A stretch of DNA of 64,000 bases, from positions 65,431 to 129,430 of the forward strand of contig JAFQYG010000003.1 in the NCBI GenBank assembly GCA_017406565.1, read 5' to 3'. Source of the DNA: Candidatus Saccharimonadota bacterium. GTDB lineage: Bacteria; Patescibacteriota; Saccharimonadia; Saccharimonadales; Saccharimonadaceae. The position numbers and the translations under genes are program-made. Below, piece after piece: positions 38,603 through 62,148 of this stretch; positions within the stretch are counted from its first letter, which is position 1; every line of letters starts with the position of its first letter. Below the pieces are notes generated by a model. That model was given only the letters and a program-made list of their open reading frames with translations. It searched no databases and was not told the origin of the DNA.

Positions 38603-39361
38603 ATGATTAAGTTTACTATTATCACTCTGTTCCAAGAGGCTCTGAAGCCTTATTTAGAGTCCTCAATGATGTACAAGGCTGCTCATAAAGGTCTTGTGGA
38701 GTTTAATTTTGTAGACTTACGCGAATTTGGTCTTGGCCCTCACAAATCTGTCGATGATACGCCTTACGGTGGTGGTGATGGGATGTTACTTAGATGCGAA
38801 CCAGTTTTTAATGCTATCGAATCGGTAAAAAAGAAAGATTCTAAGGCCAAAGTCATCCTTCCTACTCCTGTGGGTGATATCTGGAACCAAGATATGGCTA
38901 GAAAGTTTGCGAATGGGCAAGCAGAATCTTTTTCGAGGAGCATATTTTCCGACGTGGAAAATACGGAACGACCGAGCCCCTTAGGCGAGGGTGCGAGGGA
39001 GCGTTCCGAGAAAAACGATTCTTCTTGCCACTATGTAATCCTCTGCCCTCATTATGAGGGGTACGATGAACGTATCTTAAGCATTGTAGACTATAAAGTA
39101 TCCCTGGGTAAATATGTTCTTACTGGCGGCGAATTGCCAGCTCTTATCATCATTGATTCGGTTGTTCGCTTAATACCAGGGGTGCTTGGTGGCGAAAACT
39201 CAGCTGCGATTGAAAGCTTTTCTGATGGAGATAATTTAGAGTATCCTCAGTACACCAAACCATATGATTTTCGCGGCATGACAGTGCCAGACGTGCTACT
39301 CTCTGGTAATCATGGCGAAATCGCTAAATGGCGCAAACAACACTCCGGCAAAGCAAAATAA
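38603..39361 (+). CDS. trmD: tRNA (guanine37-N1)-methyltransferase with in-frame insertion
   Basis: VDDTPYGGGDGM, CPHYEGYDER, SLGKYVLTGGELPA, VPDVLLSGNH motifs; start moved to MIKF. Confidence 0.97.
   Translation: MIKFTIITLFQEALKPYLESSMMYKAAHKGLVEFNFVDLREFGLGPHKSVDDTPYGGGDGMLLRCEPVFNAIESVKKKDSKAKVILPTPVGDIWNQDMARKFANGQAESFSRSIFSDVENTERPSPLGEGARERSEKNDSSCHYVILCPHYEGYDERILSIVDYKVSLGKYVLTGGELPALIIIDSVVRLIPGVLGGENSAAIESFSDGDNLEYPQYTKPYDFRGMTVPDVLLSGNHGEIAKWRKQHSGKAK
38917..39028 (+). repeat. Palindromic in-frame insertion element in trmD (type A, sense)
   Basis: 78-nt core 38933-39010 TCGAGGAGCATATTTTCCGACGTGGAAAAT...GAGCGTTCCGAG; arms GCAAG.AGAATC.TTTT / AAAAA.GATTCT.CTTGC. Confidence 0.92.
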
Positions 39362-39363
39362 AC

Positions 39364-39505
39364 CAGTAAAAGACGGCCTTTCGACCGTCTTTTCGCTGTT
39401 ACGCGCCCACCCTTGGGGCACATTGTTTTGTTTTAATCCGCTGTTTGTTTTTATGAGTCTCCACACTCCACCTTTCAGTGGAACCCCTGTGAAGCGTACC
39501 AGCTT
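39364..39505 (-). ncRNA. Candidate novel structured small RNA (~140 nt)
   Basis: TTGACA (39535-40)-17-TATTAT (39512-17) promoter; 5' GCTGGTACGC pairs with GCGTAACAGC; two GAAA-tetraloop hairpins; A-rich linker; ends in terminator 39368-39393. Confidence 0.65.
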
Positions 39506-39594
39506 ATAAATATAATAAAGCATAAGCGTGGGACTGTCAAGCGATTTCTGGCACAAAATTTGACAAAATTGTAAAAAATGACTTTTCCACAGAA

Positions 39595-39619
39595 AAATCC
39601 CTGGCGAGGCCAGGGATTT
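39595..39619 (-). terminator. Terminator of 39619..40122
   Basis: AAATCCCTGGC-GAG-GCCAGGGATTT. Confidence 0.8.
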
Positions 39620-40122
39620 CAGAATACCCCCTCATTCTGATAATCCGGATGCACGTAGTAATATTTATTCAGATTGAGGTTGTTACCGTTTTGTAAATCC
39701 CAAAGAAGAATTGCCGTACATAGATTAAACTGATCACTGTTTAAAAAATATGTTTCACCAGTATCGGTTTTTATTCTGAATATGTCTCTCGGGAAACGGT
39801 TTGTACGTGGCTCACCGTGGGTAAGCCTTGTCACAGATGTAATATATGATGTAACAACAGGGTCACCGTTGCGATGCCCATGGCATCCATACATTTTACC
39901 ACCTAATTTCATCTTACCACGAAGCTGAATTTCTATCAGATTAGGATGGCTCCAAAAATGATAAAAATCTCTAATCGCTGTTTCGCGGTTATCGATCCCA
40001 TCATCTTCCATAAAAAGTGGCAACCATTCGACTAACTGTCTAGTCTCATCAGCATAAAGTTTATTCGGAATTTTCCAACTCGGACGAGCATGATTTCCGC
40101 CCCTTCCATTCGTAGTTCTCAT
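39619..40122 (-). CDS. Hypothetical solo protein
   Basis: ORF with SD GAAAGGGGGTG, upstream TTGACT/TGCTATAAT promoter and own terminator. Confidence 0.7.
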   Translation of the reverse strand: MRTTNGRGGNHARPSWKIPNKLYADETRQLVEWLPLFMEDDGIDNRETAIRDFYHFWSHPNLIEIQLRGKMKLGGKMYGCHGHRNGDPVVTSYITSVTRLTHGEPRTNRFPRDIFRIKTDTGETYFLNSDQFNLCTAILLWDLQNGNNLNLNKYYYVHPDYQNEGVF

Positions 40123-40262
40123 TTGACTCACCCCCTTTCGTTCCACGTATCGATCTTAAAGTACTTGTCTAGAAGACGCTATATCCTCATATTATAGCAC
40201 AAACTTTATAAAAAGTCAATATTATGCTTTAAGTAAGAGCAAAAATATGTTATAATGAAGTT

Positions 40263-60231: not shown

Positions 60232-60249
60232 AAGAATATTATAACATAT

Positions 60250-60720
60250 TTATTCTTGTACGACAAATTTATGTTCTTCCCCATCAGCAGAGAGTACTAA
60301 TTCGCCCTTATCTTGATCGAGTTTGTAATCATATTCATTCTCGAGATCATATAACCACTTTGTTTCTATTTTTAGCTTTCCGTCTTCGATTGCCCAAATA
60401 AAATCATAATCGTTCTCGTGCGCATTGGTGGTTAGAGTCCCTTTACCAATCTCTGTAAAATCCCATACTACCCTATCAGTCATTACTGTCGCTTCACCCT
60501 CCTCAGGCCCACAATTAGAATCAGGGTAATTATCTGTACAGTTGCGTATAGGGACCTCATCTGCTAATACCCATTTACCCGCTGACACCAAGTATTCTCC
60601 ATCAGCTACGTCGGCTTTGCGTGTGAGATTAAGTATCAAAAAAACCGCGCCTGCGATTAGAGTAGCCAACCCCACTGCAAACACGGACATAAAAATGATT
60701 TTCTTTTTCTTATTATCCAT
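60250..60720 (-). CDS. Hypothetical membrane-anchored protein (lipocalin-like beta domain)
   Basis: KKKK + TM; GKWVL...WDFTEIGKG.L...WAIEDGKL. Confidence 0.7.
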   Translation of the reverse strand: MDNKKKKIIFMSVFAVGLATLIAGAVFLILNLTRKADVADGEYLVSAGKWVLADEVPIRNCTDNYPDSNCGPEEGEATVMTDRVVWDFTEIGKGTLTTNAHENDYDFIWAIEDGKLKIETKWLYDLENEYDYKLDQDKGELVLSADGEEHKFVVQE

Positions 60721-60729
60721 ACCTCTATT

Positions 60730-61086
60730 TTAGCAATAGAGTTTTGTTTTGACAAGGTTCAGATAACCTTTAGCGGCTTTACGAAAATTATCCAATTCCT
60801 CGCCAGTGATTTTTTCATAATTACCACCAGCTGGTTTTTTGAATACACCAGTGGGACGAACCTCGTAACGCACAGTCATCTCTTCTAACTTACCAGCGTT
60901 ATTTACGAAACTTTCATGCCAAATCCATACATTACGGCGCGATTCAAAAAATTCTCGTCGATGTCCTTCTGGGATTGGACCAAACAAAGTCCTACCAAGT
61001 GCAGACTCAGCGTTGATCAAATCTTCATAGCTAAAACCATTGTTATAGCGTCCAGAACTAAAACCTAGCAATTTCGTAAGCGACAT
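60730..61086 (-). CDS. Conserved-looking hypothetical protein
   Basis: LINAESALGRTLFGPIPEGHRREFF...WIWHE; overlaps the upstream small ORF. Confidence 0.72.
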   Translation of the reverse strand: MSLTKLLGFSSGRYNNGFSYEDLINAESALGRTLFGPIPEGHRREFFESRRNVWIWHESFVNNAGKLEEMTVRYEVRPTGVFKKPAGGNYEKITGEELDNFRKAAKGYLNLVKTKLYC

Positions 61087-61205
61087 TCTTCAATCTCCTC
61101 TGCAATGGCATTTAACTCTTTGTACACTTCAAAAGTATCATTCGTAGCACCAAAATCATAGGTGTTACGATTTCCAAATGATGGTACAATAAACTCAGTA
61201 TTCAT
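61065..61205 (-). CDS. 46-aa small ORF absent from ORF track
   Basis: MNTEFIVPSFGNRNTYDFGATNDTFEVYKELNAIAEEIEECRLRNC*; TGCTATAAT 6 nt before ATG; fills the gap between tatD and the 60730 ORF. Confidence 0.6.
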   Translation of the reverse strand: MNTEFIVPSFGNRNTYDFGATNDTFEVYKELNAIAEEIEECRLRNC

Positions 61206-61236
61206 AATCTAATTATAGCACAAAAAGTTTAAAAAG

Positions 61237-62148
61237 TCAATGCTTATAATCAAAACTATTTAGTCTGTAAAGGTTTTCAACATTTTCAGAGGTAATAGCA
61301 GCAACTTCTTCCTGGGGCATATCAAGCTTCTCAGCTAACCATTTTGCGATATCAGCAATATAAGCCGGCTCATTAGTACTACCCCTGTGAGGAATCGGCG
61401 CCAAAAACGGCGCATCGGTCTCTAATAATATTCTTTCCAGGGGTGGAGTAGGTAAAGTCGAATAAGTCGCCAATCCATTTACGCCGACATAGAACTCTGT
61501 TTCATTCAAAATACGCTTCAGCACCTTTTTGCTATCTGTAAAAGAATGCACTACGCCACGAACCTTCGGGAAATTCTCTATAATAGGGAAAAAATCTGCA
61601 AATGCTTCTCTGATATGAAAAGACACCGGTAAGTCATTATCGACAGTCAATTGTAGCATCTGTTCGAACAATTTAATCTGTGCTTCTCGATTGTAGCCGT
61701 CATAATGGTAATCTAGGCCAACTTCTCCGATTGCTACAAGGCGAGAAAAAAGTCCTTTCTCGGAACGCTCCCTCGCGCCCTCGCCTAAGGGGCTCGGTCG
61801 CTCCGTATTTTTCACGTCGGAAAATATGCTCCTCGAAAGGACATTTTCTTCTCGCCCTGTTTCCTCTGGATGAATACCATACGTCCAATACACTCCATCA
61901 TGGGTCATTGCGAAATCTCGTGCCACCAAAGAATCTTCTGGATCTGTCCCGATACAAATAATTTTCTCAACTCCCGCTTCATGTGCTCGTTTTACGCAGG
62001 CTTCAGCTTCCTCAGCGCTAAAGAATTGTGGGTCATGTAAATGACAATGGCTATCAATAAGAATCGGGAAACCCTCTTTTGAGGACCGTAAGCTCGGCCG
62101 AACGGCCTTGAGTGTGTCCGAGGAAGAGGGCTTTTGATCCTCAGGCAT
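61237..62148 (-). CDS. tatD: TatD family hydrolase with two palindromic insertions
   Basis: IDSHCHL, GIHP, AIGEVGLDY, FHIREA, GVVHSF, LETDAPFLAP motifs. Confidence 0.95.
   Translation of the reverse strand: MPEDQKPSSSDTLKAVRPSLRSSKEGFPILIDSHCHLHDPQFFSAEEAEACVKRAHEAGVEKIICIGTDPEDSLVARDFAMTHDGVYWTYGIHPEETGREENVLSRSIFSDVKNTERPSPLGEGARERSEKGLFSRLVAIGEVGLDYHYDGYNREAQIKLFEQMLQLTVDNDLPVSFHIREAFADFFPIIENFPKVRGVVHSFTDSKKVLKRILNETEFYVGVNGLATYSTLPTPPLERILLETDAPFLAPIPHRGSTNEPAYIADIAKWLAEKLDMPQEEVAAITSENVENLYRLNSFDYKH
61740..61856 (-). repeat. Palindromic in-frame insertion element in tatD (type A, sense)
   Basis: 78-nt core 61759-61836 is the reverse complement of the trmD core with few changes; arms GCGAGAA..AAAGTCCTTTC / GAAAGGAC.TTT..TTCTCGC. 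Confidence 0.93.
62063..62138 (+). repeat. Short palindromic element forming the tatD N-terminal extension (type D, antisense)
   Basis: CCCTCTTTT-GA-GGAC ... GTCC-GA-GGAAGAGGG enclosing GGCCG-AA-CGGCC; same tandem GA signature. Confidence 0.7.

Follow-up and report, generated by a model that had tools for sequence, protein, structure and literature searches.

Palindromic units inserted in frame in nucleic-acid enzyme genes of gut and rumen Saccharibacteria as probable selfish DNA elements

The Rickettsia palindromic elements (RPEs), RPE-1 to RPE-8, were reportedly described by Ogata et al. in 2000 and 2002. These elements, for which a summary is available (PMC10969869), are among the closest described counterparts of eight palindromic units found in the stretch of DNA analysed here, a 64,000-nt part of contig JAFQYG010000003.1 (positions 65,431 to 129,430 of the forward strand; hereafter the window), which originates from a gut or rumen Saccharibacteria (TM7) genome and is present in sequencing runs that are gut metagenomes. 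Like the RPEs, the units are multi-copy palindromes of ca. 100-150 bp that fold as a long hairpin, that lie in frame in conserved genes of a host-dependent bacterium with a reduced genome and are read as extra loops, that lack both the classical signature of terminal inverted repeats (TIRs) and a target-site duplication (TSD) and a known transposase, and that occupy orthologous sites in several species, with some host genes in common, among them uvrB and truB (PMC3733652). The units are probably selfish palindromic DNA elements of a clade of gut and rumen Saccharibacteria, borne as hairpins and translated in frame.

Compared with the RPEs, the units belong to a different phylum (Patescibacteria, of the candidate phyla radiation), and are GC-rich in a genome of 40% GC, where the RPEs are AT-rich; judged from composition alone, relatedness in sequence to RPE-1 to RPE-8 is unlikely. 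Their size is fixed at 117 nt, and all copies found so far are intragenic (68/68 collected copies and 8/8 in the window), as opposed to roughly half of the RPEs. Also documented here, and to be set against the RPEs, are frequent flips in place, the re-use of sites by different types of unit and a strand bias that follows GC skew. In a search of the literature, the coverage of which was incomplete and is no proof of absence, no paper was seen to describe such elements for Saccharibacteria or Patescibacteria, and palindromic in-frame elements are apparently undescribed in this phylum. If confirmed, the Saccharibacteria would be the second clear case, after Rickettsia, of selfish palindromes colonising the housekeeping coding sequence of a reduced genome, with elements that are apparently exclusively intragenic.

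The IS200/IS605 elements and the non-autonomous palindrome-associated transposable elements (PATEs) are recognised as hairpins of single-stranded DNA (ssDNA), leave no TSD and are active in a manner coupled to the lagging-strand template. The present units resemble them in their structurally conserved hairpins, in the lack of a TSD and in an orientation bias with the replication strand (GC skew serving as proxy), and differ in that no conserved target tetranucleotide was found beside them and that a single long palindrome makes up the entire element, in place of two subterminal hairpins. In E. coli, quasipalindrome template-switch mutagenesis (Ripley; Lovett laboratory) is a replication-based process by which imperfect inverted repeats become more perfect in a single step, and can also be inverted or lengthened. 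Such switching would give coupled, seemingly ‘compensatory’ changes without structural selection; being a mutational process, it explains the upkeep and extension of the arms and the flips, and leaves unexplained how the core arose or spread. The GC clusters and double-hairpin elements of fungal mitochondria are GC-rich mobile hairpins in AT-rich compact genomes, and are sometimes found in coding regions; however, they are organellar and unrelated in sequence to the present units, and some interrupt reading frames and are bypassed, whereas here the frame is always kept.

A further comparison is offered by the intragenic GTAG- and CGTC-tagged repetitive extragenic palindromic (REP) sequences (Di Nocera et al., 2013; PMC3733652), of which the CGTC-tagged group has no known transposase, while REPs and the bacterial interspersed mosaic elements built of them (BIMEs) are mobilised by the REP-associated tyrosine transposase (RAYT), a Y1 HUH enzyme. 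As in the intragenic REPs, short GC-rich hairpins (8-bp stems with loops of 4-5 nt) combine variable stems with conserved structure and are found in genes for DNA repair and replication, in tRNA synthetase genes and in truB, and REPs are also often paired head to head as larger palindromes. The present units differ in carrying CGTC in the loops of their minus-strand form, rather than as an unpaired tag beside the stem, and in being a 117-nt three-way structure as opposed to a hairpin of 20-40 nt. No TnpA/RAYT gene is present among the 55 open reading frames (ORFs) of the window; whole genomes were not searched.

The units of the window and their in-frame insertion

A scan for GC-rich islands in the window, which has a GC content of ca. 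40%, returned the eight palindromic units, of 110-125 nt, together with one unrelated low-complexity coding stretch. All eight units lie in frame inside long ORFs, the host genes being identified through Pfam and PDB matches, and they are divided equally between type A, with a core bounded by TTCGAGGAGC and GTTCCGAG, and type B, with the motif TTCGARGGG..TCCGGAG....CCCCGAGAA. The type A units are found in trmD (38567-39361, +), where a sense, 114-nt version at 38916-39029 (+) contains the 79-nt core at 38932-39010; at site 2 of obg (41335-41459, +, the canonical 117 nt being 41339-41455); in a class-V aminotransferase (iscS-like) gene (58993-60231, -), antisense, at 59872-59988 (+); and in tatD (61237-62148, -), sense, at 61740-61856 (-), this being the sole minus-strand unit of the window. 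Those of type B occupy site 1 of obg (gene 40263-41726, +; unit 40552-40675, +), where the outermost arm mirrors native GCTGATTT (A-D-L codons), an RluB/RsuA-type pseudouridine synthase gene (48517-49323, +; unit 49041-49155, +) and, antisense, mnmA (56177-57334, -; unit 56835-56944, +), and a type B-like unit lies antisense in uvrB (393-2597, -; unit 1876-1998, +). A sequence-only reading of this DNA had placed such palindromes in the range 38917-61856, where units do occur, but the eighth, in uvrB, falls beyond it. Folded as single strands, all eight units form a rod with a three-way centre (z-scores of -3.6 to -8.9), an architecture that types A and B have in common.

Further copies of type A were collected by exact matching of the 18-mer at the right end of the core, with one genome searched per prokaryotic species. 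The real matches come nearly all from metagenome-assembled genomes (MAGs) of Candidatus Saccharibacteria or Nanosyncoccus, from guts and rumens, the remainder being chance matches in high-GC genomes. Two loci with other labels, L031 (Bulleidia sp.) and L034 (Clostridiales bacterium), carry the element as well; in both, it sits in genes orthologous to Saccharibacteria loci, and these contigs are probably mis-binned or mislabelled. In total, 68 type A copies were extracted from the loci, which are 8-kb pieces of MAGs, and from the window. The core measures exactly 79 nt in 63 of these copies, and most units are 117 nt long (18 + 79 + 20). The core motif had no match in viral contigs, and hence there is no sign of a phage vector.

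The host ORF is open through all 68 copies, every one of which lies inside a long ORF. Four combinations of orientation and frame are used, (+,1) by 47 copies, (+,0) by 10, (-,1) by 10 and (-,2) by one, and the frame that contains a stop is used by none (0/68); the two very basic frames, with net peptide charges of +6 and +7, are almost unused, and the peptides of the frames that are used are hydrophilic and near-neutral. The five longer copies have additions of +33, +36, +72 and +75 nt, all of them multiples of three, and these nested additions are without exception placed in the apical loop of hairpin 2, beside CGAC, and fold as extra hairpins; in L010, L050, L053 and L064, the nested hairpin modules are 33-75 nt long and in three of the four are flanked by repeated CGAC/GACGG. 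At the protein level, solved TrmD structures in the PDB align with the TrmD of the window as two blocks that are split at residues 101/141, with ca. 39 extra residues between them, and in contigs from one metatranscriptome (in which carry-over of DNA is possible) the coding sequence of obg continues into the unit. The open ORFs, the additions in multiples of three, the TrmD insert and the RNA contigs together argue that the units are read through, and not removed.

Logan contigs from gut metagenomes end at units of the window (38885-39096, 40581-40686 and 41323-41428), where the k-mer depth is 8-12 times that of the flanks. These contig ends and the raised depth indicate that the units fragment short-read assemblies of these genomes; as practical consequences, the units break assemblies, add 39-residue loops to annotated proteins and are usable as lineage markers of these bacteria, which are uncultured.

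The products of the host genes are UvrB, PolA, an ExoI-like exonuclease, TatD, the aminoacyl-tRNA synthetases ArgRS and AlaRS and one of IleRS type, TrmD, MnmA, the product of the iscS-like gene, QueA, TruB, Dus, MiaA, TsaD, a U5-methyltransferase, the pseudouridine synthase, Obg and one P-type ATPase. Within the window, units are found in 7 of 17 genes for nucleic-acid enzymes or translation factors, compared with none of 38 other genes, which include those of ribosomal proteins, glycolysis enzymes, membrane proteins and hypothetical proteins (hypergeometric probability ~1e-4, for a category chosen after the fact). The same bias, to repair genes, tRNA synthetases and truB, is reported for intragenic REPs and RPEs (PMC3733652). 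The favoured explanation is survivorship: the hosts are modular proteins of low abundance, for the most part indispensable, that can bear an extra loop in frame but not an imprecise deletion, and a reduced genome would thus keep its units only where the insert is borne and where imprecise removal would be lethal.

Covariation, orientation and turnover

In the 68 type A copies, the two arms of a unit score 10.5 when paired with each other (mean, anchored), compared with 2.5 (sd 2.5) for arms swapped between copies. When 62 distinct type A units of 117 nt, taken from many genomes, are aligned without gaps, RNAalifold gives a rod with double changes in 27 of its 42 pairs; pairs are formed in 94.4% of cells, against 77.2% in column shuffles and 40-57% with the partners slid, and the covariation score of 0.454 compares with 0.135 in the shuffles, of which none in 500 reaches the observed values. 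This strong covariation across many copies bears out the claim of the sequence-only reading that structure is maintained over sequence, and the compensatory examples that it had quoted are all present: ATTTTCC-GACGT-GGAAAAT (trmD, iscS) versus AATCGCC-GACGG-GGCGATT (obg site 2), CCACG/CGTGG (obg site 1) versus CCACA/TGTGG (pseudouridine synthase) and TGCCC-TCGTTC (iscS) versus TACCC-TCATTC (obg site 2). The arms are self-complementary within each copy, as had been proposed, but they are not mostly unrelated between copies. In fact, they fall into subfamilies with a recognisable consensus, e.g. nCGCGAGGAATACCCTCG / CGACGGGTATTCTCGCGn and nnnnCCAGAAGATGCTCT / AGACGCATCTCTGGnnnn, and all of the subfamilies have a common geometry, with one bulge per strand. 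The consensus is present only nearer the core, the locus-specific part of the arms being mainly the outermost 4-8 bp, which differ between loci and covary, and no TIR is fixed across all copies. CGAC/CGTC recurs in both loops and in the bulge of the right arm, with CGAC in the loop of hairpin 1. At the nucleotide level, conservation is seen in every codon position, and changes in the peptide accompany the covariation of the stems. Even at arm divergences below 15%, the changed pairs comprise 11 double changes from one Watson-Crick pair to another and 12 single changes; the doubles far exceed the number expected from independent substitutions.

The orientation of the unit follows GC skew and not the gene. 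Of 67 copies, 58 have the plus strand of the unit on the C-rich strand of the locus, as do 26 of 30 when sites are counted (sign test ~6e-5), and all 11 antisense copies are among them; in the window, the GC skew of the plus strand is negative along the entire length, and 7 of the 8 units are on that strand irrespective of the strand of the gene. Conservation of the core is as high where it runs antisense to the gene (iscS in six genomes, tsaD, uvrB, mnmA) as where it is sense. Furthermore, whole units are flipped between orthologues of tatD (L001 versus the window and L041), iscS (L048), queA (L029) and mnmA (L090 versus L007), and the 18/20 asymmetry of the arms reverses together with them. 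Mismatches in the outer stem of sense copies are strand-symmetric, with 31 G.T versus 36 A.C, and thus give no indication that G.U pairs are tolerated on the transcribed strand, while the inner hairpins have 11 G.T versus 4 A.C. The symmetric mismatches, the conservation of the core in either orientation, the flips and the agreement of orientation with GC skew argue for DNA rather than mRNA as the folded form, and of the earlier suggestion that a folded ssDNA or RNA is under selection, it is the DNA that the data favour, and not the mRNA. The orientation of genes in the window suggests that the G-rich strand is the leading strand, in which case the reverse-complement form of the unit would lie on the lagging-strand template. 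This template is transiently single-stranded during replication.

Units are present at orthologous positions in several species in trmD, at both obg sites, and in iscS, tatD, mnmA, queA, truB and dus. At such sites, the identity is 0.91 for the core (still ~0.88 without the last 18 nt, which were fixed by the search), compared with 0.81 in the arms and 0.71 in 300 nt of the coding sequence alongside. Cores differ at 5.7 of 61 nt between sites of one genome, compared with 7.4 at one site between genomes. The occupancy of a site is itself variable: across genomes, obg site 1 holds type A, type B, a B/A chimera or decayed remnants, or is empty; at obg site 2, type A in either orientation, type B, a third type (C) and others are observed, as well as no unit at all; and type A in either orientation, type B and type C are found at the tatD site. 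At the iscS site, the flipped type A unit of the window has as its counterpart in the closest genome a type B unit, also flipped, with boundaries that agree within a codon; L041 holds a type B unit at this place. Type C, which occupies sites filled by type A or B in other genomes, is a third, longer palindromic family (..CTTGAATTTTCAAGCACGTCATAC..GGGAGAACCG.CCCTTCGGG..), observed in L058 at obg site 2 and in L048 at the tatD site. Yet another palindrome is seen at the trmD site of L066 and L083. The empty, filled, flipped, chimeric and decayed states of orthologous sites form a natural series for the maintenance, inversion and exchange of palindromes, and the flips and the re-use of sites are, with strand polarity, the aspects most worth following; strand polarity is in addition a testable lead to the mobilising activity.

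Boundaries, mechanism and rival explanations

Pairing between the two sides of a unit stops at the boundary of its 18/20-nt arms: beyond it, 33 of the 68 copies have no further pair and another 19 have one, the mean being 0.94 pairs versus 0.51 in controls. No excess of direct-repeat matches, as expected of a TSD, was found at any of 25 boundary offsets, and the same boundary test revealed no conserved flanking motif beside the element. A classical MITE (a miniature transposable element with inverted repeats), derived from a DDE transposase, is not supported, both a TSD and fixed TIRs being absent; that the TIRs are not fixed had also been maintained in the sequence-only reading. No parent insertion sequence with the same ends was seen in the window or in the 8-kb loci, no genome-wide search having been made. 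Empty orthologues, from which both arms are absent, were found for trmD (L049, L005, L085), obg site 1 (L055), mnmA (L016, L068 and L079, as well as alleles from metagenomes) and the gene of the pseudouridine synthase (L090, L079, L068). In eight gut metagenome runs searched for joints of presence and absence, contigs mostly break at the units and empty alleles were obtained only at mnmA, from three runs; these alleles are exactly 117 nt shorter than the window (135-18, 149-32, 155-38, 157-40), and are too diverged to fix the junction at the nucleotide level.

These boundaries bear on the proposal that the outer arms are made at insertion, by inverted duplication of the target or by a template switch that copies a flank, so that one arm is native sequence. 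Some copies do look like this. At obg site 1, the window and the loci L005 and L085 have the conserved A-D-L codons GCTGATTT on one side and AAATCAGC, which mirrors them, on the other; in L014, the right arm of the trmD unit has gained the reverse complement of native F-A codons; in L090, the palindrome in mnmA is likewise extended into native codons; and there is the small excess of pairing past the boundary. Outward growth by the copying of flanks thus occurs, in a minority of copies, but it is mostly not the cause of the differences in arms between loci. In most copies pairing ends with the 18/20-nt arms, the net insert is constant at 117 nt, unrelated genes share arm consensus and bulge geometry, and the empty alleles, in which the sequence-only reading had proposed to look for a native arm, lack both. 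As the main source of the arms, local copying is accordingly quite unlikely. That the units are intervening sequences, removed from RNA or protein in the manner of an intron or intein, with the outer stem joining the gene halves, is extremely improbable: the rod-like fold does bring the two flanks together, but the ORF is open in every copy, the lengths of the units and of their nested additions are multiples of three, RNA contigs continue from coding sequence into the unit, there is no match to a ribozyme or intron, and 39 residues are too few for an intein. Selection for the peptide itself, as a loop, tag or interaction motif, with the palindrome incidental, would account for units that are in frame and free of stops in every copy, for the use of hydrophilic, near-neutral frames and for a functionally coherent set of hosts; however, unrelated peptides result from the four frames and orientations, flips alter the peptide at one and the same site, and it is the nucleotides, in all codon positions, that are conserved, with stems that covary as the peptide changes. 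A protein module is, on this evidence, very improbable.

The arguments for a functional structure in the mRNA, such as a site for an RNase or other protein, a translational pause or an autoregulatory element, with the stems kept by selection for RNA folding, are of several kinds. Covariation is strong and the loops and junction are conserved, the core is more conserved than the coding sequence that flanks it, the hosts are strikingly enriched for enzymes of tRNA and rRNA, the unit is present in metatranscriptome contigs, and the inner hairpins contain slightly more G.T than A.C mismatches. The outer stem, however, shows no G.U bias, the core is as well conserved antisense to the gene as sense to it, units flip at orthologous sites, and orientation tracks GC skew and not transcription. 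Rfam gives no match either: at the gathering threshold only two tRNAs were returned, and at a permissive E-value only matches at chance level (E ~1), with no family for the units. An mRNA function is therefore considered unlikely. The host genes had also prompted a tRNA-like or T-box-like reading, which was dropped in view of the lack of a tRNA or Rfam match and the variable orientation, and the host bias was dropped as an argument for it, since this bias was already known for intragenic REPs (PMC3733652).

In the reading that is preferred, that of selfish palindromic DNA, types A, B and C would be variants of one architecture, combining an outer stem that varies, a stem that is conserved and has tandem G.A, and two hairpins, one short and one long, and the element would be a discrete unit of ca. 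117 nt (39 codons) that adds a hydrophilic loop to cytoplasmic enzymes acting on nucleic acids. The element would live at the level of DNA, and may be recognised or copied as a single-stranded hairpin or a cruciform at the replication fork. A hairpin acting at the fork would have loops and a junction that are conserved in sequence while the stems covary, an orientation set by the replication strand, rather than by the gene, and nested additions in the hairpin tip. The complementarity of the arms would then be kept, beside any selection for a foldable hairpin, by coupled events at the DNA level, the candidates being template switching from one arm of the palindrome to the other, inversion of a unit as a whole and its replacement by another copy. 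A more specific version, namely a new kind of structure-addressed mobile DNA in which a hairpin polar with respect to the replication strand and devoid of TIRs and TSD is copied into or over existing hairpin sites, with flips in place and exchange rewriting the 39-residue loops of enzymes of tRNA modification, aminoacyl-tRNA synthesis and DNA repair, and which is possibly driven by an unrecognised HUH-type activity or by host replication and repair, is tentative and rather doubtful.

Several points weigh against the view of the units as selfish DNA. No transposase or nuclease is linked to the element, and there is none among the 55 ORFs of the window. Collection by an 18-mer makes the right end of the core conserved by construction and under-samples decayed copies, and many of the copies are orthologous and hence not independent. 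GC skew, measured on 8-kb loci, is only a proxy for the direction of replication, and the similarity of cores within a genome may be inflated by the handling of repeats in the assembly of MAGs. No recent insertion was found together with a closely related empty allele, and the junctions are known to within a codon or two. Finally, these data do not separate selection on structure from mechanical correction of the arms.

Other features of the window

The intergenic stretch at 39400-39520, between trmD and an ORF at 39619-40146 (-), has a depth 20-50 times that of its surroundings, in both DNA and metatranscriptome contigs; it has no match in Rfam and may be a conserved small RNA. An AT-rich repeated motif, ATTATA(T/G)CACA...AAAAGTCAAT, is intergenic and lies directly upstream of genes, at 17284-17325, 25035-25076, 35581-35622, 40183-40224, 55259-55300 and 61212-61241, and looks like a shared promoter or operator signal.

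Repeats of other kinds are also present. Within the gene for a 900-aa DUF285 protein (30929-33631), ca. 15 tandem copies of a 90-nt (30-codon) repeat extend over 32168-33499. A direct repeat of 72 nt, with 89% identity between its copies at 33634-33705 and 34834-34905, brackets the ORF at 33843-34796 and adjoins a tRNA gene (34907-34987), and the two copies could bound a small element that has integrated. At 42798-44417, a single ORF joins a RuvX (Holliday junction resolvase-like) domain to a YceG domain.

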